The position numbers and the translations under genes were made by a program. From the NCBI GenBank assembly GCA_943356485.1, contig CALRFD010000006.1:7450-71449 (forward strand): a stretch of 64,000 bases of DNA, read 5' to 3'. This document shows positions 2,753 through 58,592 of this stretch, one piece after another; position 1 is the stretch's first letter, and the number at the start of each line of letters is the position of its first letter. This DNA is from Patescibacteria group bacterium. GTDB lineage: Bacteria; Patescibacteriota; Microgenomatia; Daviesbacterales; UBA10151. The notes under the pieces are model-generated. The model worked only from the letters and a program-made list of their open reading frames with translations. It had not been told where the DNA came from and ran no database searches.

Positions 2753-4890
2753 TGGCTGTTACTAAAACCAAACGAGATTATCCTCTGGATAGAATCCGTA
2801 ATATCGGAATAATTGCACATATTGATGCAGGTAAAACTACGACTACCGAAAGGATACTTTTTTATACAGGAAGAACCTATAAAATCGGTGATATTGATGA
2901 AGGGACTACTACTACCGACTGGATGGAGCAAGAAAGAGAGCGTGGTATTACTATCGTATCAGCTGCCATCACGACCTTTTGGATTCCAAAGAGCGGACCT
3001 TTTAAAGATTTAGAGACCAGGATTAACTTAATTGATACACCGGGTCATGTTGATTTTACAGCTGAGGTAGAAAGATCATTAAGAGTTCTGGATGGCGGAG
3101 TTATTGTTTTAGACTCTTCTTCCGGAGTGCAATCTCAAACAGAGACTGTTTGGAGGCAGGCTAATAAGTATAAAGTCCCTTTGATTGCTTTCTCTAATAA
3201 AATGGATGTTGTTGGCGCAGATTTTTTAGGTACAATCCAATCTGCCAGAGATAGGCTTGGGGCAAATGCGATTGCTTACAATTTGCCAATAGGTAAGGAG
3301 AATGATTTTAAGGGAGTGGTAGATTTGCTTACAAAAACAGCTTTTATTTGGGAAGGTGATGAAACAGGGGCTAAATTTCATGCAGCTGAGATTCCTCAAG
3401 ATATGGTTTCGGAAGTTGACAGCCATAGAGAAAAATTAGTGGAGGAGATTGCCGGTTCAGATGATGTGTTAATGGAAAAATACCTTGGAGGTGAGGAGAT
3501 CTCAGTTGAAGAGCTAAAAGCAGCTCTTCGAAAAGCAGTTATCGACAATAAAATTGTTCCTGTTTTAGCCGGATCATCCTTGCGGAATAAAGGTGTGCAG
3601 TTAATGCTTGACTGTGTAGTTGAATATTTGCCTTCACCGCAAGATGTGAATGAATTCACCGGAATAAATCCTCAAACGCAGGAGGAAGAAATTAGAAAAG
3701 CTGTTGCCTCCGAGCCTTTAGGCGCTCTGGCTTTTAAAATTCAAGTCGATCCACATGTAGGAAAGTTAACCTATATCAGAATTTACTCAGGTACTTTAAA
3801 GAGCGGAAGCTATGTTTATAACGCCACAAAACAGATTAAAGAAAGAGTCGGCAGGTTGCTACTCATGCACGCTAATGATCGTGAGGAGATTGAAGAGGCC
3901 TATGCAGGGGAAATAGTTGCAGCAGTTGGGCTTAAAGATACAATCACCGGTGATTCACTTTGTGACGAATCTGCTCCTTTAATTTTGGAATCGATTTCTT
4001 TCCCTGATCCTGTTATCTCTCTGGCAATCGAACCAAAAACAAAGTCTGATCAGGAAAAGTTAGGTTATGCTCTGCAGAGACTGGCAGAGGAAGATCCGAC
4101 ATTTAGAGTCAAGTCTGATCCTGAAACACAACAAACAATCATTGCCGGAATGGGTGAGCTTCAACTGGAGATCTTAGTTGACAGGATGAAACGTGAGTTT
4201 AAGGTGGAAGCAAATGTAGGTCAGCCGCAGGTTGCGTATAAAGAAACGATTCAAAAAGAAGCTTTGGGTGAGGGTAAATATATCAGACAAACAGGAGGTC
4301 GCGGACAATACGGACACTGTTTGTTACGTATTGAGCCTCTTCCCAGAGGGCAAGGAAGAGAATTTGTATCAGCTGTTGTTGGCGGATCGATTCCAAGAGA
4401 ATTTATTGGACCGATTGAAAAAGGTGTTATTGAGAAAGAAGATACAGGATTATTAGCAGGTTATCCAGTAACTGACATTAAAGTAACAGTTTATGATGGA
4501 TCTTTCCATGATGTTGATTCATCTGAGATGGCATTTAAGATCGCCGGCAGCTTAGGTTTATCTGAGGCTTCTAAAAAAGCTGACATGATTCTGCTTGAAC
4601 CTATTATGAAGGTAGAAGTTACTACCCCGGATGAATTTTTAGGAGAGATAATTGGAGACTTGTCTTCAAAAAGAGCGCAAATTTTATCATCAGAAACTAG
4701 CGGAAAGGCTAGAGTGATAATTGCTTTGGTGCCTCTGGCTGAAATGCATGGATATGCTACAGCTATCCGGTCTATGTCGCAAGGCCGGGCTACTTACTAT
4801 ATGGAAGCAGATCACTATGAGCCTGTGCCAAGCAATATTACCCAAAAGATTATTGAAACCTCCGGCTTTACCGGACGTGTCGAACACTAA
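2752..4890 (+). CDS. fusA: elongation factor G
   Basis: [15 protein letters not shown]..., 712 aa, all EF-G domains present. Confidence 0.95.
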
Positions 4891-6924: not shown

Positions 6925-7025
6925 TGCATTTTGTTTACAAATGCGATATATTTATAACTACCAGCGAGAAAGAGCTGGATTTTAATGGCCTCTTGCATTA
7001 AAATGCAATTACCGTTAAAATAACA
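6925..7025 (+). promoter_or_regulatory. two tandem promoter-like units upstream of tuf (TTGCAT-17-TATATT and TTGCAT-17-TAAAAT)
   Basis: Repeated CTCTTGCATT -35-like boxes with 17-nt spacers and A/T -10 hexamers; palindrome TTGCATTAAAATGCAA. Confidence 0.35.
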
Positions 7026-7030
7026 AAATT

Positions 7031-8215
7031 ATGGCAGACGCAAAAAAGTTCGATAGAAGTAAACCACACGTAAATATTGGCACCATGGGTCATGTTGACC
7101 ACGGTAAAACAACTCTTACAGCAGCTATAACTACTGTGCTTGCTGGTAAAGGCATGGCAGAAAAAAGATCTGTTGATCAAATTGATAATGCTCCTGAAGA
7201 AAAAGCTCGTGGTATTACGATTAATATTTCTCATCAGGAATACGAGACAGCTAAAAGGCATTATGCTCATATTGATATGCCTGGTCATGCAGATTATATC
7301 AAAAACATGATTACCGGAGCTGCGCAAACTGATGGAGCTATTTTAGTTGTTTCCGCCCCAGATGGTCCTATGCCTCAAACAAGAGAACATTTGTTATTAG
7401 CCCGACAGGTTGGAGTTCCGGCGATTGTAGTTTTCTTAAATAAATGTGACATGGTTGACGACGCCGAACTGCTAGATTTGGTTGAAGAAGAGGTTAGAGA
7501 TTTGCTTAAGAAATATGAATATGATGCAAATTCTCCAATAATTAGAGGATCTGCTAAAAAAGCTTTGGAAGGTGACCCAACAGCTGTAAAAGCCATTGAA
7601 GACTTAATGGATAAGGTAGATGAGTGGATTCCAACTCCTGTTAGGGATAAGGATAAACCATTTTTAATGGCAGTGGAAGATGTTTTCTCTATTAAGGGTA
7701 GAGGAACAGTGGTAACCGGTAGAATTGAAAGAGGAGTAGTAAAAGTTAATGAAGAAATAGAAATTGTGGGAATTAGGCCAACTAAAAAGAGTGTTGTTAC
7801 TGGAATTGAGATGTTTCACAAATTATTAGATCAGGGTGAAGCCGGAGATAATGCCGGAATTTTACTTCGGGGTGTTGAAAAAGATGATGTTGAAAGAGGA
7901 CAAGTTTTAGCCAAACCAGGCTCAATTACTCCTCATTCCGAATTTGAAGCGGAAGTCTACATTCTTTCTAAGGAAGAAGGCGGTAGGCATACTCCATTTT
8001 TCAAAGGTTACAGACCACAATTTTATATCAGAACAACTGACGTGACTGGTGAAGTAACTCTTCCAGAAGGTGTTGAAATGGCTATGCCAGGCGATACAGT
8101 TAAAGTGGTTGGAAAATTAATTACACCGGTTGCTATGGAAGATGGTTTAAGGTTTGCTGTTCGAGAAGGCGGTAAAACTGTTGGAGCCGGAGTTATTACC
8201 AAGATAATTGCCTAA
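7031..8215 (+). CDS. tuf: elongation factor Tu
   Basis: [15 protein letters not shown]..., 394 aa. Confidence 0.96.
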
Positions 8216-8552: not shown

Positions 8553-8587
8553 TTTTTACATCAACTTGCTTAAAATTATCACTTCTT

Positions 8588-8818
8588 GCAATTTACGCAC
8601 AAGACTGTTAAAATTCCTTTTAGTGATGACCATTTCAAGTGGTTAATTAATATTTGATATTTTCAGTAGATCGCGTCCTTCGCTTCTAAGGCACAGACGT
8701 AGATACGCTCAGGATAAACTGGTCGGTATCTGCAATTTGTCCTGAGAAATAGAATAAGGAAAGAAATACTGAGTGAGTGTTCCCTAAAAAGGACTCACTC
8801 TTTTTTGTGCGTAAATAA
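8588..8818 (+). promoter_or_regulatory. structured 230-nt rpsJ-rplC intergenic leader closed by a 10-bp inverted repeat (ATTTACGCAC ... GTGCGTAAAT) and ending in a GAGTGAGTG...CACTCACTC-T6 hairpin
   Basis: Long-range complementarity bracketing the whole spacer plus internal hairpins. There is no room for a promoter between the hairpin and the rplC start. Confidence 0.35.
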
Positions 8819-9647: not shown

Positions 9648-10452
9648 AAATCCAAAGATCAAAATTCAAAAGTCAAAAGTTGAAGAAAAAATTGAAAAAG
9701 CGCTGAAACCTGCTACAGCTAAAAAAGCTACAAATTTGTCTATACCTGCTTTTTCTTTGCTGGGAAAAGCAGATGGGACAATAGATTTGCCAAAGGAGAT
9801 CTTTGGAGTTTTAGTAAATAAAGCATTACTGTCTCAAACAGCCAGGGTTTATCTTAATAATCAAAAAACTATCACTGCTTCAACTAAAACCAGAGGTCAG
9901 GTTGAAGGATCCTCAGCTAAGATTTATGCTCAAAAAGGAACAGGTCGGGCAAGACACGGAAGTGTTAGGGCACCCATTTTTGTAGGTGGTGGTATAGTTT
10001 TTGGTCCAACTCCTCGAAAAGTAATAATGGAGTTACCTAAGAAGATGAAAAAAGCAGCTTTGATTTCTGCTTTATCTGATAAAGCAGCAGAGAAGAAAGT
10101 TTTAGGCTTAACAGGCTTAGATAAGACAACCGGTAAAACAAAAGAGATTGCTAGCCTTTTAACTAAATTATCTGATAAAAAGAAAAAGGAAAGCGTTTTA
10201 ATTTTAACTGATAAAAATACGGATAATGTTTTAAGAGCGGTGAGAAATCTTCCTACGGTGAGTGTCTTCTCGGTTGAGACAATTAATGCCTATGAAGTGC
10301 TGAAACATGATTTATTGCTATTAACAAAAGAGGCAGTTGATAAATTAGGCAAAAGAGAGTCAAGTGGCAAGAATGAAGAGTCAAGTGAAAAAGTAGAAAA
10401 AGCAAAAATAAAAGTAAAAACAAAAACAGGAAAGGAAAGTTCTAGACTCTAG
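9637..10452 (+). CDS. rplD: 50S ribosomal protein L4 with Lys-rich N- and C-terminal extensions
   Basis: Core ...AQKGTGRARHGSVRAPIFVGGG... typical L4; 271 aa versus ~205. Confidence 0.9.
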   Translation: MPVKNPKIKIQKSKVEEKIEKALKPATAKKATNLSIPAFSLLGKADGTIDLPKEIFGVLVNKALLSQTARVYLNNQKTITASTKTRGQVEGSSAKIYAQKGTGRARHGSVRAPIFVGGGIVFGPTPRKVIMELPKKMKKAALISALSDKAAEKKVLGLTGLDKTTGKTKEIASLLTKLSDKKKKESVLILTDKNTDNVLRAVRNLPTVSVFSVETINAYEVLKHDLLLLTKEAVDKLGKRESSGKNEESSEKVEKAKIKVKTKTGKESSRL

Positions 10453-10469
10453 CGACTAGCCACTAATTT

Positions 10470-10934
10470 ATGATTATTCTAAAACGACCGATTATAACTG
10501 AAAAATCAATGAGGCTTGCGTCCGCAGGACTCTATACTTTTGAGGTAGACAAAGACGCTACAAAGCCAATGGTTGCTCGAGCTGTGAAAGATAAATTTAA
10601 TGTGAGCGTTTTAAGCGTAAAAGTTATACGTATAAAGGGTCAAACAAAAACACAAAGAACAGTTCGGAAAAATTATAAAGCTAGTGATATTAAGAAAGCT
10701 TTGATTAAAGTGGGTATTGGTCAAAAAATAGCAATCTTTGAAACTCCAAAAGAAGAAGTAGTAGTTACAACAGCAGAAGGCGAGCCTATAATGCTTCGAG
10801 AAAAGAAAGATCTCTTAGGTAGAACCAAAGTAAAAGTTGAAAGAAGTCCTGCCCGCAATGCTTCGCAACGCGTTGCAGGTGGGGCAGTAGGGGCAGCTCC
10901 GACAACTCAAAGAAAGGTAATAACAGGGAAATAA
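10470..10934 (+). CDS. rplW: 50S ribosomal protein L23 (C-terminally extended)
   Basis: Typical L23 N-terminus; 154 aa versus ~95. Confidence 0.88.
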   Translation: MIILKRPIITEKSMRLASAGLYTFEVDKDATKPMVARAVKDKFNVSVLSVKVIRIKGQTKTQRTVRKNYKASDIKKALIKVGIGQKIAIFETPKEEVVVTTAEGEPIMLREKKDLLGRTKVKVERSPARNASQRVAGGAVGAAPTTQRKVITGK

Positions 10935-10938
10935 AGTC

Positions 10939-11703
10939 ATGAAAGTATTAAGTATCAAGAAGCCAAAAAATTTGAAACATTTGCTGAAGAAACATTCCGG
11001 TAGATCATCTGGTGGGATGGTGACTGTACGGGGTCAGGGTGGGAGACATAAGAGATATTATAGAGAGATTGATTTTAAAAGAGATAAATTTGGTGTTGAA
11101 GGTGAGGTTATGGCATTAGAATATGATCCAAACAGGAATGTAGATATAGCTTTGATTAAATATGCAGACGGTGAATTTAGATATATCCTGGCTCCAAAAG
11201 GATTAGGACAGGGAGAGAAGATAGTATCTGGTGAAAAAGTAGAGGTTAAATTAGGAAATGCTTTGAAGCTAAAAAATATTGCAATTGGAACTTTAGTGCA
11301 TAATGTGGAGTTAACTCCGGGACATGGAGGGCAAATTGGTAGATCAGCAGGAATAGGTATACAGATACTGGCAAAAGAAGGTGGATTTGCCCATTTGAAA
11401 ATGCCATCAACAGAGGTTAGAATGATACCCTTAGATTCTTTAGCTACTGTTGGGGTTTTGGGTAACGAAGAGATGAAGAGAATGGTGATTGGCTCGGCAG
11501 GTAGATCCAGACATATGGGTATTAAACCTACGGTTCGTGGTGTTGCTCAGGATCCGGATTCACATCCGCATGGTGGAGGAGAAGGCCGATCAGGCATAGG
11601 TCGTAAGAAGCCAATGACTAAATATGGCAGACCAGCAGTTGGAAAAACCAGAAAAAAGACTAAGCAAAGTAGCAAGTATGTCATAAAAAGGAGGAAACCA
11701 TAA
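10939..11703 (+). CDS. rplB: 50S ribosomal protein L2
   Basis: GRSSGGMVTVRGQGGRHKRYYREIDFKR... and conserved GSAGRSRHMGIKPTVRG. Confidence 0.93.
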   Translation: MKVLSIKKPKNLKHLLKKHSGRSSGGMVTVRGQGGRHKRYYREIDFKRDKFGVEGEVMALEYDPNRNVDIALIKYADGEFRYILAPKGLGQGEKIVSGEKVEVKLGNALKLKNIAIGTLVHNVELTPGHGGQIGRSAGIGIQILAKEGGFAHLKMPSTEVRMIPLDSLATVGVLGNEEMKRMVIGSAGRSRHMGIKPTVRGVAQDPDSHPHGGGEGRSGIGRKKPMTKYGRPAVGKTRKKTKQSSKYVIKRRKP

Positions 11704-11712
11704 AATAAAAAT

Positions 11713-11997
11713 ATGAGTAGATCTATTAAAAAAGGACCATATATTGATGAAAAATTAATGAAAAAAGTGATGATGCAAAAACAAGGTGGCTCTAAAAATG
11801 CTATCAAAACTTGGGCAAGAAGATCACAAATCCCACCTGAATTTGTTGGTGTAACATTTTTGGTGCATCAAGGTAAGAATTTTGTAACTGTATTCGTATC
11901 TGAATCAATGGTAGGCCATAGATTAGGTGAATTTGCACCAACAAGAACTTTTAGAGGTCATGGAAAGGTGACAGAGAAGAGTACATCAAAGACATAA
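11713..11997 (+). CDS. rpsS: 30S ribosomal protein S19
   Basis: [19 protein letters not shown]... typical S19. Confidence 0.93.
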
Positions 11998-12005
11998 AGG
12001 AAAAT

Positions 12006-12431
12006 ATGGAAGTACAAACTATACAAAGATATATCCACAGTAGTCCCCGTAAATTGAGGTTAGTTGCTGATATGGTTAGAAAGATGGCGCCTGTTAGCGC
12101 CTTGAGGATTTTGAGAATTACACCAAAGTATGCAGCGAAGGATCTCTCAAAAGCAATTGAGACAGTCCTGGCAAATGCAAAGCAGCAAGGTATTGATGAA
12201 AATGTTTTATCTTTCAAAAAGCTGGAGGTTGATGAAAGTGTTAAGATGCGAAGATTTCATGCAGGAACAAGAGGAAGGGTTAAGCCTTTCAAGAGAAAGA
12301 TGGCGCATATTAAGATAGTTGTCAGTGACCAGGTTACAGTTAACAGTAAAAAGCAAGTTTCAAATAAAAAAGTAAGTGTAGCTCCTGCTAAGGCAGTAGA
12401 AAAGCTTGAAGAAATAAAGGAGACAAAGTAA
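12006..12431 (+). CDS. rplV: 50S ribosomal protein L22 (Lys-rich C-terminal tail)
   Basis: Typical L22 core; the tail carries a KVSNKKV segment also present in L29. Confidence 0.9.
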   Translation: MEVQTIQRYIHSSPRKLRLVADMVRKMAPVSALRILRITPKYAAKDLSKAIETVLANAKQQGIDENVLSFKKLEVDESVKMRRFHAGTRGRVKPFKRKMAHIKIVVSDQVTVNSKKQVSNKKVSVAPAKAVEKLEEIKETK

Positions 12432-13073
12432 ATGGGACAAAAGATTCATCCAGTAGGTTTTAGAATGGGAATATCCTCGACATGGAAGTCCCGTTGGTTT
12501 GCTCAAGGGTTAAAATACCAGACAAACGTATTAGAGGATATAAAGATCCGGGATATTTTAATGAAGAAATTAAAGCCGGCTGGTATACATTCGATTGAGA
12601 TAGAGAGGGCAGTTAATAAACTGAAAGTAATACTTTTTGTTTCGCGGCCGGGAGTATTGATTGGTAGAGGTGGAAGCGGTTTAAGTGAGCTAAAGAAGTT
12701 TTTGATGAAAAGTTTAAAGATTAAAGAAGAAAATGCTCTAGAAATTATGCCAATGGAGATTAAATCTGCAGATCTGTCATCTTATTTAGTCGCACAAAAT
12801 ATAGCAGAGCAGTTAATAAGAAGGATGCCTGCGCAAAGAATTATGAATCAATCAATTGATAGAGTGATGAGAGCTGGAGCTAAAGGTGTTAGAATTGTCC
12901 TTTCTGGAAGAATTGGTGGGGCTGAGATTGCCAGACGTGAATGGAAAGCATCTGGTACAATGCCTCTCCATACTTTAAGAGCAGACATAGATTTCTCCAT
13001 CTACCCGGCGCTAACAAAGTCCGGATATGTTGGTGTAAAAGTTTGGATTAACAAAGGGGAGGTTAGTATATAA
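12432..13073 (+). CDS. rpsC: 30S ribosomal protein S3
   Basis: [14 protein letters not shown]... with KH and S3-C domains. Confidence 0.93.
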
Positions 13074-13074
13074 T

Positions 13075-13494
13075 ATGGCGCTGCTGCAACCAAGTAGAAC
13101 GAAGCATCGAAAAATGTTTAAAGGCAAAAGAACTGGTGTTGCAACCAGAGGTAGTGCAATCTCTTTTGGTACATTTGGGCTGAAGGCTATGGAATGCGGG
13201 TGGATTAGTGCTAGACAGATTGAATCAGCCCGCCGGGCTATGGCTCATTTTACACAAAGAGGCGGACGTATTTGGATTAGGATTTTTCCGGATAAACCTA
13301 TAACCAAACATCCGGCAGAGTCCAGAATGGGTTCTGGAAAAGGTGACGTTGAAGGTTATGTAGCAGTGATCAAACCAGGTCAGCTAATCTTTGAAATGGG
13401 AGCTGTCACAAAAGATATAGCAACAGAGGCATTAAGGCTGGCTGCGCATAAGTTGCCACTCGATACAAGGTTTGTAGAAAAAGGAATTAACTAA
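13075..13494 (+). CDS. rplP: 50S ribosomal protein L16
   Basis: [17 protein letters not shown]... typical L16. Confidence 0.93.
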
Positions 13495-13495
13495 A

Positions 13496-13798
13496 ATGAA
13501 GAAAAACGAATTTGTGATTATTAAAGGACTTAGTATAAAAGAATTAAAGCAAAAGGCTAAAATTTTTAAAAAAGAAATAGCAGATTTGAATATGGATAAA
13601 AATATGAAGAAACTGAAGGATTTAAAATCCATTGATAAAAAAAGAAAAGACTTAGCTCAGGTTCTAACTGTGTTGAATCAAAAAGAACTTTTAGCAAAAT
13701 TGGAACCGAAAGCAGTGTCAAGTGAAGAGAAAAAAGTGTCAAATAAAAAAGTAGCAAAAATAAAAACAAAAGTAGGAAAGGAGAGTACTAGTCTCTAG
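13496..13798 (+). CDS. rpmC: 50S ribosomal protein L29 with Lys-rich C-terminal extension
   Basis: L29 N-terminal helix; 100 aa versus ~65; the tail and 3' junction duplicate the L4 tail. Confidence 0.8.
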   Translation: MKKNEFVIIKGLSIKELKQKAKIFKKEIADLNMDKNMKKLKDLKSIDKKRKDLAQVLTVLNQKELLAKLEPKAVSSEEKKVSNKKVAKIKTKVGKESTSL

Positions 13799-13823
13799 AC
13801 TCTAGCGACTAGCCACTAACTAT

Positions 13824-14303
13824 ATGACCGGACGAGTAGTATCAATAAAATTAAAAAATACAGCAACTGTTTTAGTCAGCAGAATAGCTATGCATCCTTT
13901 GTACAAAAAGACCTATGTTCGAACTAAAAGATTTTTGGTTGATGATCAAATTGGGGTTAAAGATGGGGATATTGTTGAGATTATAAAATGTAAACCAATA
14001 TCTAGGAATAAGCATTGGAGAATAGTTAAGGTTACCGGTGCAAATTTACAAGAGATAGCAGAAGCTAAACTAAAACAGGCAGCTGCAGAGGTCATCTCTG
14101 AAGCCATGCCGGTAGAGAAAAAAATGACAAGTGTCCCGCCTGTCGGCAGGCAGGTAATGCCAAAGGAAAAAATTTCAGAAAACTCTGAAAAACCGGGAGA
14201 GTCAGAGGATCAGAACGTCAGTGAATCTGATAGTTCTGACAAATCTGATACACAGAGTCATTCTGATAAGAAAAAAACCGGTAAAAAGAAAGAGATAAAA
14301 TAA
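13824..14303 (+). CDS. rpsQ: 30S ribosomal protein S17 with ~70-aa acidic C-terminal extension
   Basis: S17 OB-fold core (...[10 protein letters not shown]...); the tail [25 protein letters not shown]... is homologous at DNA level to the L3 tail. Confidence 0.88.
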
Positions 14304-15566: not shown

Positions 15567-15628
15567 ATAGTATATTGCACATCGTTTTAACGATTAACCA
15601 TAAACTATATACAATAAACTAAAAAATT

Positions 15629-16749: not shown

Positions 16750-17081
16750 TGGAAAAATTAAGTAGAGTTAGACGACATAAAACAATAAGAAAGCATCTGA
16801 TTGGTACGAGCGATCGTCCAAGGCTCGCAGTCTTTAGATCTAATCAACATATCTATGCACAGATAATTGATGACAGTCTTGGGAAGACTTTGGTATCAGG
16901 TTCTGATATGAAACAAACAGGGACTAAAAAGCAAAGAGCATATAATTTAGGTAAGAGTTTAGCAGAGAAAGCGCTAAAATCTCAAATCAAAACAATAGTT
17001 TTTGATAGAGGTGGTTTTTTATATCAGGGTAGAATTGCAGAAATTGCCAGAGGTGCCAGAGAAGGAGGGTTATTATTCTAA
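16749..17081 (+). CDS. rplR: 50S ribosomal protein L18
   Basis: ...[20 protein letters not shown]... typical L18. Confidence 0.93.
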
Positions 17082-17581
17082 TGAATATAAATAATCAACG
17101 TGACCAACAATCAGAATATTTTGAAAGGGTGGTTCAGGTTAATCGGGTTTCGAAAAAGACTAAAGGTGGGGATAAAAGATCATTGTCCGTTTTAGTGGTG
17201 GTGGGAGATAGAAAAGGAAAGGTGGGAGTTGGATTAGGTAAAGCCGCAGAAGTGCAATCAGCTGTTCGTAAAGCCACGAGCTATGCTAAAAGGCATATGA
17301 TAGATGTGCCGCTTCGAGGTACAACTATTCCTCATCAGATTTTAGTTAAAAGCGGGGCAGCTATTGTATTGCTTAAGCCCGCTCCTCTTGGAACCGGAGT
17401 CATTGCAGGCGGTGCCGTGAGAGTAGTAGTTGAGGCAGCAGGAATACATGATATTGTTTCTAAATCTCTAGGAACAGAAAACAAAGCCTCAAATGTATAT
17501 GCAACAATGGAGGCTTTATCTAAACTAAAGAAAGTAGTGATAAAGGCTGAAACTGGCGATAAAAAGGATAAGAAAGACTAA
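17081..17581 (+). CDS. rpsE: 30S ribosomal protein S5
   Basis: ...[14 protein letters not shown]... typical S5. Confidence 0.93.
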
Positions 17582-17584
17582 GTT

Positions 17585-18022
17585 ATGAAACTACACACTT
17601 TAATTAAAAGTAAAACAGGTATGAAGAAAAGAGTTGGAAGAGGAATTGGCTCTGGTCTTGGGAAAACTGCCGGAAGGGGGACGAAAGGTCAAAAGGCAAG
17701 AGGTAGCGTTCCAGCTGGATTTACCGGTTCCGGTTTACCTTTGTATAAAAAACTACCTCTAAAAAGAGGTTTGGGAAATACAGTCCTAGCTAAAAAATTA
17801 ATCCCTGTAAATCTCTCAAGTTTGAATGTTTTCAAGGATAAGACTGTAGTGGATATGGATTCTCTGTTAGGTGCAAACATTATTAATAAAAAAGATCTTA
17901 AAAAAGGAGTGAAGATTTTAGGTCATGGTGAACTCAATTCCGCGTTAACTATCAAACTGCCGTCTTCTGCAAGTGCTCGAAAGAAGATAGAAAAGATAGG
18001 CGGAAAGGTTGTAGATGTCTAA
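17585..18022 (+). CDS. rplO: 50S ribosomal protein L15 (no L30 gene between rpsE and rplO)
   Basis: ...[26 protein letters not shown]... typical L15. Confidence 0.92.
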
Positions 18023-19834: not shown

Positions 19835-20591
19835 ATTAAATTTAATGAGAAAAAGCGGGGAAATTGCAGCCGCGGCTTTGAAAAAAGCTATGGAATCTAT
19901 TAATATCGGTGTAACTGAGGTAGAAGTTGACAGGGCAGTTGAAAAAGAGATTTATCGACTGGGAGGGGATTTATCATATAAAACAGTTCCCGGGTATAAG
20001 TATGCAACCTGTATAACGGTGAATGAAGAAGTTGTGCATGGCATTCCGACTGAGAGAAAGTTTCAGGCAGGAGATTTAGTATCTGTAGATTTAGCGGTGA
20101 TGTATAAAGGCTGGCATACAGATTGTGCATGGAGTGTGTTAGTAAAGGGTAAAGGGGAAAGCGTTAAGGGGAAAGAATGGGGGGAGAAGAAGAAATTTTT
20201 GGAAGTAGGGCAACAGGCTCTGTGGGATGGAATAACTCAAGCTGTGGAAGGAAATAGAGTTGGGGATATCTCTTTTGCAATTCAGCAAAAAGTAGAAGAA
20301 GAGGGATATAAGGTGGTACATTCCTTAGTAGGTCATGGGGTTGGAAAGAGCTTACATGAAGATCCTGAGATACCGGGTTACGGAAAACCAGGAACAGGCT
20401 TGGTTTTAAAAGAAGGAATGACACTGGCAATAGAGGTCATCTATGCTAAAAGTTCGTCTGAAGTTGTTTTAGCTTCTGATGGTTGGACCTATCTTTCTAG
20501 TGATGGATCTTGGGGAGGGCTTTTTGAAATGAGTGTAATAGTGGGCAAAAAAGAAGCTGAAGTCTTAACCCGCCTGCCAAAGACTGGCTAG
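19812..20591 (+). CDS. map: methionine aminopeptidase type I; last codons (RLPKTG*) contributed by a GC-rich palindromic insert
   Basis: Pita-bread fold motifs (VHGIP, HSLVGHGVG); the 3' end overlaps repeat family A. Confidence 0.9.
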   Translation: MKSRNRYELNLMRKSGEIAAAALKKAMESINIGVTEVEVDRAVEKEIYRLGGDLSYKTVPGYKYATCITVNEEVVHGIPTERKFQAGDLVSVDLAVMYKGWHTDCAWSVLVKGKGESVKGKEWGEKKKFLEVGQQALWDGITQAVEGNRVGDISFAIQQKVEEEGYKVVHSLVGHGVGKSLHEDPEIPGYGKPGTGLVLKEGMTLAIEVIYAKSSSEVVLASDGWTYLSSDGSWGGLFEMSVIVGKKEAEVLTRLPKTG

Positions 20592-57743: not shown

Positions 57744-57750
57744 CTCCTTT

Positions 57751-57838
57751 CATATTTTTTCCATAAAAAAACCTCCCATTTCGGGAGGTCTATTCCTTTC
57801 TCTTTTAGATTTTAATTAATCTAAAAAGACCTCCCTAA
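57751..57838 (-). repeat. 88-bp leader element, copy 1 (identical to 58505-58592): terminator/SD-sequestering hairpin + U7 + AUG mini-uORF, with upstream competing GGGAGG
   Basis: Exact 88/88 match. Minus strand reads UUAGGGAGGUCUUUUUAGAUUAAUUAAAAUCUAAAAGAGAAAGGAAUAGACCUCCCGAAAUGGGAGGUUUUUUUAUGG. Confidence 0.85.
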
Positions 57839-57952
57839 CGTTATCCCCCAAAAGGAGACTTTGTGTAAGAAGGCTAAGTAATAAGTTAAAATTTAGTTTT
57901 AAAGTTTTAATCATAAGATTGAATATATATTTAAATCATTTAATTGTCAAGT

Positions 57953-58507
57953 TTAAAAACAAGCAAATTGTCTTTCTAAATCTTTAATACTATTTATTCC
58001 AGGGACAACCCTGGGTTGTTTTCCTGTAGCAATTTGTTTAAAAGAAGATAGTGTTTCAGCTGAAGCTCTAATTAAATCTTGAACTAAAGCATCTGTAGAA
58101 AGTGGGTTACTATCACCATTTTCTCTTAATGCATCAATTACTTGTTCCGGTGTTGCTATTAGGCATGGCAGGTTACTAATACGAAATTTTCCAGAGTATC
58201 TTGCTCTATGATGACCATCAATAATAAATAATTGTATATTTTTGTTAGGAATAGCACAGACTAGAATAGGATTTTCATTCAAGTAGTTTATGCCTTGTTG
58301 AGCTAACCTTCGTTCTACCGAGGATCTTTTGCAACCGTCGTATTCCTCTCTAGTTTGAATTCCAAAAAGATGTATTCTTGGAATTAACAATCTAGGTGTC
58401 TTTGATTCTAAACTTTCTTTTAATTTATTCCCCTCTACGAATTGAAAGCTAGAGCAAGATAGCTGTCGTCTATCAATAATAGGTTTTTCCATTTCTAAAT
58501 AATTCAT
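57953..58507 (-). CDS. ParB/sulfiredoxin-fold (ParB-like nuclease domain) protein
   Basis: ...NPILVCAIPNKNIQLFIIDGHHRARYSGK... has the DGHHR-type motif of the ParB/Srx superfamily; 184 aa. Confidence 0.5.
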   Translation of the reverse strand: MNYLEMEKPIIDRRQLSCSSFQFVEGNKLKESLESKTPRLLIPRIHLFGIQTREEYDGCKRSSVERRLAQQGINYLNENPILVCAIPNKNIQLFIIDGHHRARYSGKFRISNLPCLIATPEQVIDALRENGDSNPLSTDALVQDLIRASAETLSSFKQIATGKQPRVVPGINSIKDLERQFACF

Positions 58508-58592
58508 ATTTTTTCCATAAAAAAACCTCCCATTTCGGGAGGTCTATTCCTTTCTCTTTTAGATTTTAATTAATCTAAAAAGACCTCCCTAA
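58505..58592 (-). repeat. 88-bp leader element, copy 2 (identical to 57751-57838); its uORF MEKI* overlaps the ATG of the ParB-like gene (ATGA)
   Basis: Exact duplicate; upstream promoter-like TTGACT-17-TACAAT at ~58700. Confidence 0.85.

Follow-up and report, generated by a model that had tools for sequence, protein, structure and literature searches.

The 64-kb window analysed here (the whole stretch of DNA introduced above) carries on its + strand a tuf-S10-spc ribosomal-protein (r-protein) cluster, from tuf at 7031 to map at 20591. Its L4 protein is identical to one database entry, whose named relatives are Candidatus Daviesbacteria (Microgenomates, candidate phyla radiation or CPR). Two junctions of this cluster, L4/L23 and L29/S17, contain copies of one short block, and these two blocks are a real junction element, belonging to a family of conserved cassettes that move from one junction to another, not a chance duplication. 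The element, referred to below as module or cassette, consists of a Shine-Dalgarno (SD)-like motif followed by an array of 7-nucleotide (nt) units of the CTAGNNN type, which leads up to the AUG of the next gene. It was found only in S10-spc operons of some Candidatus Daviesbacteria, and its role is probably translational. The reading preferred here, with a probability of about 0.4, is that the array is a copied heptad insert, which would fold into a hairpin and in this way bridge the two parts of a split ribosome-binding site (RBS).

The 26-nt sequence TCTAGACTCTAGCGACTAGCCACTAA occurs exactly at 10441-10466 (L4/L23) and at 13794-13819 (L29/S17), and these are its 2 copies in 64 kb. The 25-mer CTAGACTCTAGCGACTAGCCACTAA has its sole sites at 10442-10466 and 13795-13819, even with 3 mismatches allowed, and 100 dinucleotide shuffles gave 0 matches (chance expectation 0). 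Local alignment of 10352-10452 with 13709-13798 reached a score of 73, compared with 22.9 +/- 3.9 for shuffles, none of the 300 attaining 73. Over the cassettes as a whole (10352-10472 and 13709-13826) 96 of 109 aligned bases are identical, in coding and non-coding parts alike, and the homology extends about 100 nt upstream, into the tails of L4 and L29. A first-pass annotation of the window had described a block of about 70 nt shared by 10401-10469 and 13755-13823; these positions are correct and the homology is longer than was first described. The Lys-rich ends of the two proteins (L4 ...KIKVKTKTGKESSRL and L29 ...KIKTKVGKESTSL, each running to the stop codon) were likewise described correctly. 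The CTAG repeats are present too, and what had been taken for a 7-nt insertion, TCTCTAG, in copy B is one extra heptad unit. The two copies are composed as follows.

10352..10441, + strand: coding part of cassette A, the Lys/Ser/Glu-rich C-terminal tail of L4 (rplD), homologous to the L29 tail
10429..10437, + strand: SD-like motif A, GGAAAGGAA, inside the end of L4, with 12 nt from the end of its last GGAA to the L4 stop and 32 nt to the L23 AUG
10438..10457, + strand: predicted RNA hairpin A, AGUUCUAG-ACU-CUAG-C-GACU, with 12 unpaired nt before the AUG
10442..10469, + strand: heptad array A, CTAGACT CTAGCGA CTAGCCA CTAATTT (three units and CTAATTT)
10470..10472, + strand: ATG of L23 (rplW), without an SD 3-13 nt upstream
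13709..13787, + strand: coding part of cassette B, the C-terminal tail of L29 (rpmC), homologous to the L4 tail
13775..13783, + strand: SD-like motif B, GGAAAGGAG, with 12 nt from its end to the L29 stop and 40 nt to the S17 AUG
13784..13817, + strand: predicted two-tier RNA hairpin B, AGU.CUAGUC.CUAG-ACU-CUAG.GACUAG..ACU
13788..13823, + strand: heptad array B, CTAGTCT CTAGACT CTAGCGA CTAGCCA CTAACTAT (four units and CTAACTAT)
13824..13826, + strand: ATG of S17 (rpsQ), without an SD 3-13 nt upstream

Array A includes the L4 stop TAG (10450-10452) and the entire 17-nt spacer between L4 and L23; with the L4 stop as frame 0, further stops follow in frame +1 at 7 nt and in frame +2 at 14 nt. In array B lie the L29 stop TAG (13796-13798) and the spacer of 25 nt between L29 and S17, and each of the three frames has a stop. 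As 7 is not a multiple of 3, the TAG units reach all three frames. In register copy B reads GGAAAGGAG-AGTA-CTAGTCT-CTAGACT-CTAGCGA-CTAGCCA-CTAACTAT-ATG, and copy A has one unit less. In either copy, tail plus spacer has autocorrelation peaks at lag 7 (z = 4.4), lag 14 (z = 2.1-2.5) and lag 21 (z = 3.5-4.5). The tetramer CTAG is mildly under-represented in the window (observed/expected 0.72), where clusters with at least 3 CTAG per 30 nt are just these two, both in the S10-spc operon. TAG is the stop codon at L4/L23, at L29/S17 and of S10, and TAA that of nearly all other operon junctions, which are tight (-23 to +9 nt, three larger gaps excepted). The L23 start is confirmed by the N-terminus MIILKRPIITEKS, conserved in relatives. 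L4 homologues without the module have their C-terminus about 30-40 residues earlier, and most L29 homologues are 73-80 amino acids long, without the cassette tail.

An assembly artefact or a synthetic stop-linker was rejected as the origin of the repeats, since diverged versions of the module occur in relatives from independent samples and the identical L29 protein is recorded on 3 contigs from three sources. These relatives were collected by homologue searches with L4 and L29, by contig look-ups and by one metagenome scan (L22); a scan of a genome collection with an L4 alignment, which picked universal peptides, gave two Daviesbacteria among the matches listed. Labels with three digits (L001-L097) denote contigs and loci of relatives and other loci and are distinct from the names of ribosomal proteins. 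Altogether 17 modules, one of them cut by a contig end, were found on 11 Daviesbacteria contigs, the window and 10 others, at six types of junction (L4/L23, S19/L22, L22/S3, L29/S17, S17/L14 and L5/S14) and in one orientation throughout. The motif is therefore conserved in relatives and has further copies, at r-protein junctions, where the first-pass annotation had named a single chance duplication as the alternative. A covariance model, R1, was built from 11 modules and used to search 502 kb (the window and 50 CPR loci, both strands). It recovered all modules, the five outside the training set included, every real match lying on the coding strand at a junction, and it found no further module copy in the 502 kb.

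The junctions occupied differ from genome to genome. The closest relative (sample SRR22388239; 94% amino-acid identity in S3) has modules at L4/L23, L29/S17 and S17/L14. One module each was found in L002 and L003 (L4/L23), L096 (L29/S17) and L086 (L22/S3), and three each in L088 (L22/S3, L29/S17, L5/S14) and L090 (S19/L22, L22/S3, L29/S17). L004 combines a decayed module at L29/S17 with one of a CTGA type at S17/L14, and L005 has a CTGA-type module only. In the 5' to 3' direction the general anatomy is an SD-like GAAAGGAG within the upstream gene, 3-6 units of C-TAG-NNN, then CTAA-N2-4 and the AUG. Units of the form C-TGA-NNN are rare, and the upstream frame usually ends at the second unit. 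The SD-like motif, GGAAAGGAR or of the AAGGA/GGAG type, stands at the same position in every aligned module. In Daviesbacteria the module makes a handy marker of lineages.

What is held constant in these copies seems to be the nucleotide sequence. Between the genomes compared, four-fold degenerate sites of S3 are 25-49% identical, that is, saturated; module cores are 59-94% identical, and the orthologous L22/S3 modules of three genomes 86-88%. The frame is changed in two copies, those at the ends of L29 in L090 (tail ...ERRIVPRL) and of S17 in L004; copies in L090 and L088 are alike only from the SD-like motif onwards and share no tail; and the non-coding 3' half is the most conserved part. 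Since the module is read in other frames and the likeness starts at the SD-like motif, the conserved object is a nucleotide sequence of about 45-55 nt and not a peptide. It could be supposed that selection acted on the proteins, the Lys-rich tail being an rRNA-binding extension with which the spacer hitchhiked when the tail was copied. The window copy does include about 90 nt of tail, and L4 tails of the form ...KE(K/Q/S)xS(L) recur in 4 of 120 homologues. The copies of L090 and L088 that share no tail, the L29 end of L090 read in another frame and the peak of conservation in the non-coding half speak against such an origin, which on this comparison appears largely refuted, by the frame change and the tail-less modules, and is highly improbable. 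The first-pass proposal of a functional intercistronic element rather than coding drift is thus borne out as regards nucleotide constraint (core identity, frame changes); of the two functions it suggested, translational coupling and a protein-binding site, the coupling is, in its plain form, unlikely at spacings of 17-32 nt, for a reason given below (PMC10666635).

The signals for translation change with the presence of the module. When an SD was defined as an SD-type tetramer 3-13 nt upstream of the AUG, it was found at 0 of 11 module junctions and at 91 of 144 other junctions of the same loci, and by our own arithmetic the chance of 0/11 is 0.37^11, or about 2e-5. S17 has an SD at normal spacing in 5 of 5 relatives without a module at L29/S17 and lacks it in 6 of 6 contigs that bear one (5 flagged by the script and the degenerate L004 copy). 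Judged by eye, three junctions of the window operon (L4/L23, L29/S17 and L5/S14) stand out by having no SD of the GGAG type within 20 nt upstream of the ATG; under the stricter tetramer rule just given, seven further junctions of this operon are also without an SD. From the SD-like motif to the AUG the linear distance is 32-48 nt in 16 modules, beyond the functional range.

Some observations concern these starts. The L5/S14 spacer of the window (15567-15628) is 62 nt long and AT-rich, has neither an SD for S14 nor CTAG heptads, and has a counterpart with a CTAG module in L088. On L001 the automatic call places the L23 start at 1068, 39 nt (13 codons) too far downstream of the true start at 1029, likely because the true ATG stands behind a module and has no SD; gene callers mis-start genes behind such modules. 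The module stretches CACUAAYUU and CUAGCGACUAG may be candidate complements of 16S rRNA. Translational bypassing or programmed frameshifting was rejected on inspection, as after a CUC-to-CUC hop the next codon is UAG again. No consensus site of an internal promoter or terminator was found at either window module on either strand.

At SD-less junctions of the same operons a different design recurs, made of an SD-like motif, a small hairpin (GAAU/CAAU loop), 9-10 nt and the ATG. It was seen at S17/L14 and L22/S3, namely in L088 at 7280-7311 (before L14), in L001 at 2995-3027 and in L005 at 8672-8705 (both before S3), with GGACAGAAUUGUCC and GGACAGAATTGTCC as examples, which encode a tail ...GRTELSK. 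These hairpins are unrelated to the heptads. Tails of the GRTELSK type recur on the L29 homologues P0129, P0179, P0184, P0193 and P0197.

The position of the SD-like motif relative to the upstream stop calls to mind a cassette for termination-reinitiation, in which the terminating ribosome would be tethered through its anti-SD to the GGAG and reinitiate at the SD-less AUG 17-32 nt downstream. A GGAG 12 nt upstream of the stop would be 9 nt from the P site, and the stops in all frames would bring ribosomes that had slipped out of frame on the A-rich Lys tail to one release point. Of 14 modules, 12 have a GGAG or GGAA 11-17 nt upstream of the in-frame stop, and in 6 of them the distance is precisely 12 nt; in 11 of the 14 every frame meets a stop within 14-21 nt. 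These figures agree with such a cassette, as do the lack of an SD before the downstream genes and the tight packing of the remaining operon junctions. In E. coli and Haloferax, however, termination-reinitiation drops by 40-80% at +14 nt and is nearly abolished at about 20-38 nt (PMC10666635), so plain reinitiation is unlikely for L23 and S17 and more than plain coupling is needed. Moreover, an SD-tethered ribosome cannot reach an AUG 32-48 nt away without release, and the palindromic CTAG units with their unpaired last CTAA find no account in such a scheme. Taken together, such a cassette is rather unlikely.

The RNA structures predicted for the modules would offer another way to span this distance. 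Prediction of RNA structure near the downstream starts, which the first-pass annotation had suggested, placed a single hairpin between SD-like motif and AUG in all 16 complete modules. In the predicted pairing CUAG unit 1 joins unit 4 and unit 2 joins unit 3, with the in-frame stop near the apex, and the 32-48 nt shrink to 6-14 unpaired nt (median 12; 21 nt in one module). In all 16 cases the hairpins of the SD-to-AUG segment are more stable than dinucleotide shuffles (z -0.2 to -4.3), and unconstrained folds gave z < 0 in 11 of 13 (mean about -1.5). Hairpin B of the window, with the L29 stop in its predicted apical stem and 6 unpaired nt before the AUG, has a folding free energy (dG) of -12.1 kcal/mol and z = -2.2 relative to dinucleotide shuffles. 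The CTGA-type modules of L004 and L005 are predicted to take the same two-tier shape from AGUCU/AGACU and AGCU/AGCU, and the decayed L29/S17 copy of L004 keeps a 10-bp stem with 3 of 4 CTAGs lost. The similar layouts at the SD-less starts of S3 in L001 and L005 and of L14 in L088, with their small hairpins unrelated to the heptads, likewise speak for a hairpin at this place.

According to the hairpin-bridged reading, a cassette would have been copied between operon junctions by ectopic recombination or gene conversion, in the window carrying along about 90 nt of Lys-rich tail, and the array would thereby have been inserted between an otherwise normal SD and AUG, leaving them 32-48 nt apart. 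CUAG is self-complementary, and the units would therefore pair into a hairpin in which most of the insert is looped out, so that about 6-14 nt remain single-stranded from the SD-like motif to the AUG; this would be a split RBS resembling the one at the T4 gene 26-25 junction. The stops in all frames would make gain or loss of 7-nt units tolerable, with the upstream protein ending within a few codons, and selection for translation of the downstream genes (L23, S3, S17 and the others) would keep the sequence from changing. The T4 split RBS may be regarded, by analogy, as the nearest mechanistic precedent. For T4 genes 38 and 25 a hairpin brings distances of 22 and 27 nt down to 5 and 11 nt, respectively (PMC3014915). 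In both systems the linear SD-AUG distance is too long (22 and 27 nt in T4, 32-48 nt in the module), a hairpin, in the module a predicted one, intervenes with a similar unpaired rest (5 and 11 nt in T4, 6-14 nt in the module), the site is a cistron junction with the SD within the upstream gene, and a sub-clade of relatives only is affected. They differ in that the role of the T4 hairpin was proven by mutation and probing, whereas that of the module is predicted and shows no covariation, and in that the module insert is a heptad array with all-frame stops, the upstream stop inside it and several copies per operon.

Several results weigh against this reading. No covariation was detected, the pairs proposed by RNAalifold being invariant CTAG:CTAG with a consensus of -2.1 kcal/mol, and the shuffle and slide controls of the conserved-structure test were unremarkable. 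Dinucleotide shuffles have unpaired remainders no longer than those of the modules (for single modules P(eff <= observed) is 0.29-0.97; for at least 15 of 16 modules at <= 14 nt p is about 0.03), and the idea that the hairpin shortens the spacing beyond chance was rejected, as such shuffles do not support it. A remainder of 11-14 nt lies at the long end of workable SD-AUG spacing. Hairpin A of the window is weak (-3.9 kcal/mol with SD and AUG kept unpaired; z = -0.2 against dinucleotide shuffles), the weakest of the family, and at L5/S14 of L088 the unconstrained fold pairs the SD-like motif itself. The loop and flank bases (ACU, CGA, CACUAA) are as conserved as the stems, which a simple hairpin would not need. 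Comparison with the operons of sister lineages, also proposed in the first pass, revealed the module in several of them and its absence from three complete operons (L085, L092 and L094), which makes the module dispensable. When larger windows (71-126 nt) were folded z was about 0, values below 0 being confined to the SD-to-AUG segments. As to known RNA families, Rfam gave no match at E <= 5 in 10300-13900, the sole match at gathering score in the window being a tRNA, so neither r-protein leaders nor other curated RNA families have a covariance-model match at the modules.

Module cores have an average identity of 0.77 within a genome, compared with 0.73 for copies from different genomes at one and the same junction; CTAGACT is common to both window copies and CTAGATT to both copies of the closest relative; and among the four cassettes of this pair of genomes, which are 83-91% alike, orthologous copies do not group together. 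These comparisons give modest evidence of homogenisation within genomes. Other C-terminal tails of the operon share blocks as well. The KVSNKKV likeness between L22 and L29 pointed out in the first pass proved to be a likeness of the DNA:

12355..12374, + strand: L22 tail segment AAGTTTCAAATAAAAAAGTA, 19 of 20 nt identical to the L29 tail at 13734-13753 (score 37; shuffles 19.5 +/- 2.9, 0 of 300 reaching it)

A 101-nt block with 81% identity is shared by the acidic, Ser-rich C-terminal tails of L3 (9507-9607) and S17 (14166-14266); this block (...ISENSEKxG...NSDKS...) has an internal period of 9 nt, not 7, and is a second, independent tail exchange. From the blocks shared by L4 and L29, L22 and L29, and L3 and S17, it follows that the C-terminal tails of the operon are a mosaic of exchanged pieces. 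A diversity-generating retroelement was rejected on inspection, as the copies differ by indels and at more than A positions.

Such exchanges agree with the view that the module is a selfish or neutral repeat, either a slippage-prone heptanucleotide array or a mini-element like a repetitive extragenic palindrome (REP) or a miniature inverted-repeat transposable element (MITE), spread by gene conversion and tolerated through its unit stops and self-folding, so that likeness between genomes would reflect recent spread and homogenisation. The patchy distribution, with none in the three complete operons named above, the variable number of units (3 to 6), the genome-specific CTAGACT and CTAGATT, the lack of clustering by orthology and the further tail exchanges would all fit. 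It does not sit well with this view that orthologous L22/S3 modules remain so alike despite saturated synonymous sites, that a single orientation and S10-spc junctions only were found in the window and the 502 kb of loci, and that conservation of the unit stops is position-specific, internal ones being TAG and the last TAA. No transposase or RAYT-type gene turned up, although no search aimed at them was made. As a full explanation the selfish or neutral repeat is fairly unlikely, and the history of the module may nevertheless be partly of this kind. REPs are imperfect palindromes between co-transcribed genes, present in tens to hundreds of copies per genome and in both orientations, and mycobacterial interspersed repetitive units (MIRUs) are 46-101 bp long, with ends overlapping the flanking stop and start codons. 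The module is likewise a short repeated element between co-transcribed genes; unlike REPs, their mosaic arrangements (BIMEs) and MIRUs, it measures 28-50 nt, is built of 7-nt units and keeps to one orientation and to S10-spc junctions in the 502 kb.

Heptamer arrays before SD-less starts are known elsewhere, without proven function, and the TAACTGA direct repeats of marine Beggiatoaceae, Cyanobacteria and Bacteroidetes (169 sets genome-wide) are the nearest descriptive precedent (MacGregor 2015, PMC4679880). Post-transcriptional roles were proposed for them, and they are predicted to be unstructured (PMC4679880). Like the module they are tandem, stop-containing 7-mers a few nt before SD-less starts, some within r-protein operons, and may overlap the end of the upstream ORF (open reading frame) by a few codons. 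In contrast, the module units are CTAGNNN or CTGANNN, imperfect and with a palindromic core, the array is preceded by a conserved SD-like motif, and there are 2 clusters in 64 kb, in one operon, compared with 169 sets per genome. No description of such elements in CPR bacteria was found in the literature.

The strict spacing of the stops suggests a further possibility, that the run (UAG-N4)x3-4 plus UAA, as present in the window modules, serves as a platform for a HutP- or TRAP-type oligomer or for a ribosomal protein that co-regulates the cistrons. In HutP sites the triplets are spaced by 4 nt. Each surface of HutP binds three XAG motifs (PMC2425495), and the sites of the Bacillus hut leader resemble the module in having NAG/UAG triplets in runs of at least 3. 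A periodic binding site would accommodate the UAG triplets at a strict 7-nt period (4-nt spacers), the conservation of bases outside the putative stems, the confinement of modules to one operon, and the spacers of other Microgenomates described below, where period 7 persists throughout 60-90 nt (lag-7 z = 14.6 and 9.9), a regularity that a hairpin alone does not need. It is at odds with the CTGA-type modules at S17/L14, which have the same architecture and few UAGs, and with the close relatives that lack the module. HutP, for its part, needs two sites with a 12-17-nt linker and a terminator stem, whereas the window modules are a single run with no terminator to antiterminate; no HutP is known in the lineage, although no scan of the 64 kb for one was made, and no candidate binding protein was identified. 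This possibility is very unlikely.

Period 7 reappears in r-protein-operon spacers of other Microgenomates. The lag-7 and lag-14 z values are 14.6 and 10.9 for L006 (Levyibacteriota), 9.9 and 6.9 for L014, and 3.1 and -0.2 for L016 (Roizmanbacteria), compared with 2.6 and 1.9 for the other CPR loci and -0.3 and 0.0 for 264 spacers of non-CPR loci. The elements responsible are:

L006 6998-12205, L014 5866-11995 and L016 8975-9036: heptad-periodic spacer elements of 60-90 nt with units TAGCGTC, TGACGAT and NNNGATT

They share with the Daviesbacteria module the operon positions, a stop that opens the 7-nt run, SD-less downstream starts and, at many but not all junctions, an SD-like motif 5-14 nt before the stop; those of L006 also contain TCTAGCGACTAGT. 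They differ in being longer and two-armed, with stems of up to 16 bp, and in occupying 8-10 junctions per operon. Model R1 gave no match to the elements of L006, L014 and L016, and the link to the module is one of likeness, not established homology. It is tempting to speculate that Microgenomates have an undescribed class of heptad-periodic, stop-phased intercistronic elements, which would replace overlapping S10-spc junctions and whose reader, a dedicated factor with periodic RNA binding or the ribosome itself, would set how much of each r-protein is made relative to the others, the CTAG cassette being the minimal form; as a whole this proposal is unlikely.

Among viral contigs the 18-mer of the window has a sole match, on the unrelated, GC-richer, phage-like contig L097 (IMGVR_UViG_2599185211_000002), where CTAGCGA CTAGCCA CTAACCA CTAGCCA at 6981-7010 lies between two genes that both run on the minus strand, and its orientation with respect to them is the reverse of that in the window. 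CTAG arrays on viral contigs have a period of 7 in at least 120 cases, of 6 in at least 120 and of 8 in 113, and are thus uninformative on period 7.

Three other places in the window deserve mention. The S10-L3 gap (8553-8804) contains a conserved promoter-like CTTGCA-N17-TGTTAAAAT, with counterparts in L004 (4899-5090), L005 (4848-5099) and L094 (1814-2010). The leader that comes after it is conserved too and comprises CAGTAGATCGTGCGTC, GATACGACGATTGA and ACTGAGTGAG-loop-CTCACTCTTTT, in this order, with a terminator-like hairpin just before rplC. Rfam gave no match at E <= 1 in this gap, which, judged from its sequence, may be an undescribed r-protein leader or attenuator. Identical 90-nt copies at 57749-57838 and 58503-58592, 754 nt apart, flank a minus-strand ORF (57953-58507, DGHHR motif), with a start-codon region and a terminator-like hairpin (CCTCCC...GGGAGG) in either copy; 57749-58592 may be a small duplicated or inserted gene cassette. 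At 17081-18022 S5 is directly followed by L15, without an L30 gene, an absence that is usual in CPR bacteria.

Tight coupling of overlapping cistrons is classically illustrated by ribosomal-protein operons. In the Daviesbacteria described here the essential L23 and S17, and in relatives S3, L14, S14 and L22, start 17-51 nt behind the previous stop and without a Shine-Dalgarno sequence of their own. If the hairpin-bridged reading is true, a design known from a single phage junction would have been reused repeatedly in cellular operons of CPR bacteria, and a slippage-prone array could be inserted harmlessly into an essential junction. If the module is instead a binding platform, it would add a new level to r-protein regulation in organisms whose ribosomes are reduced.

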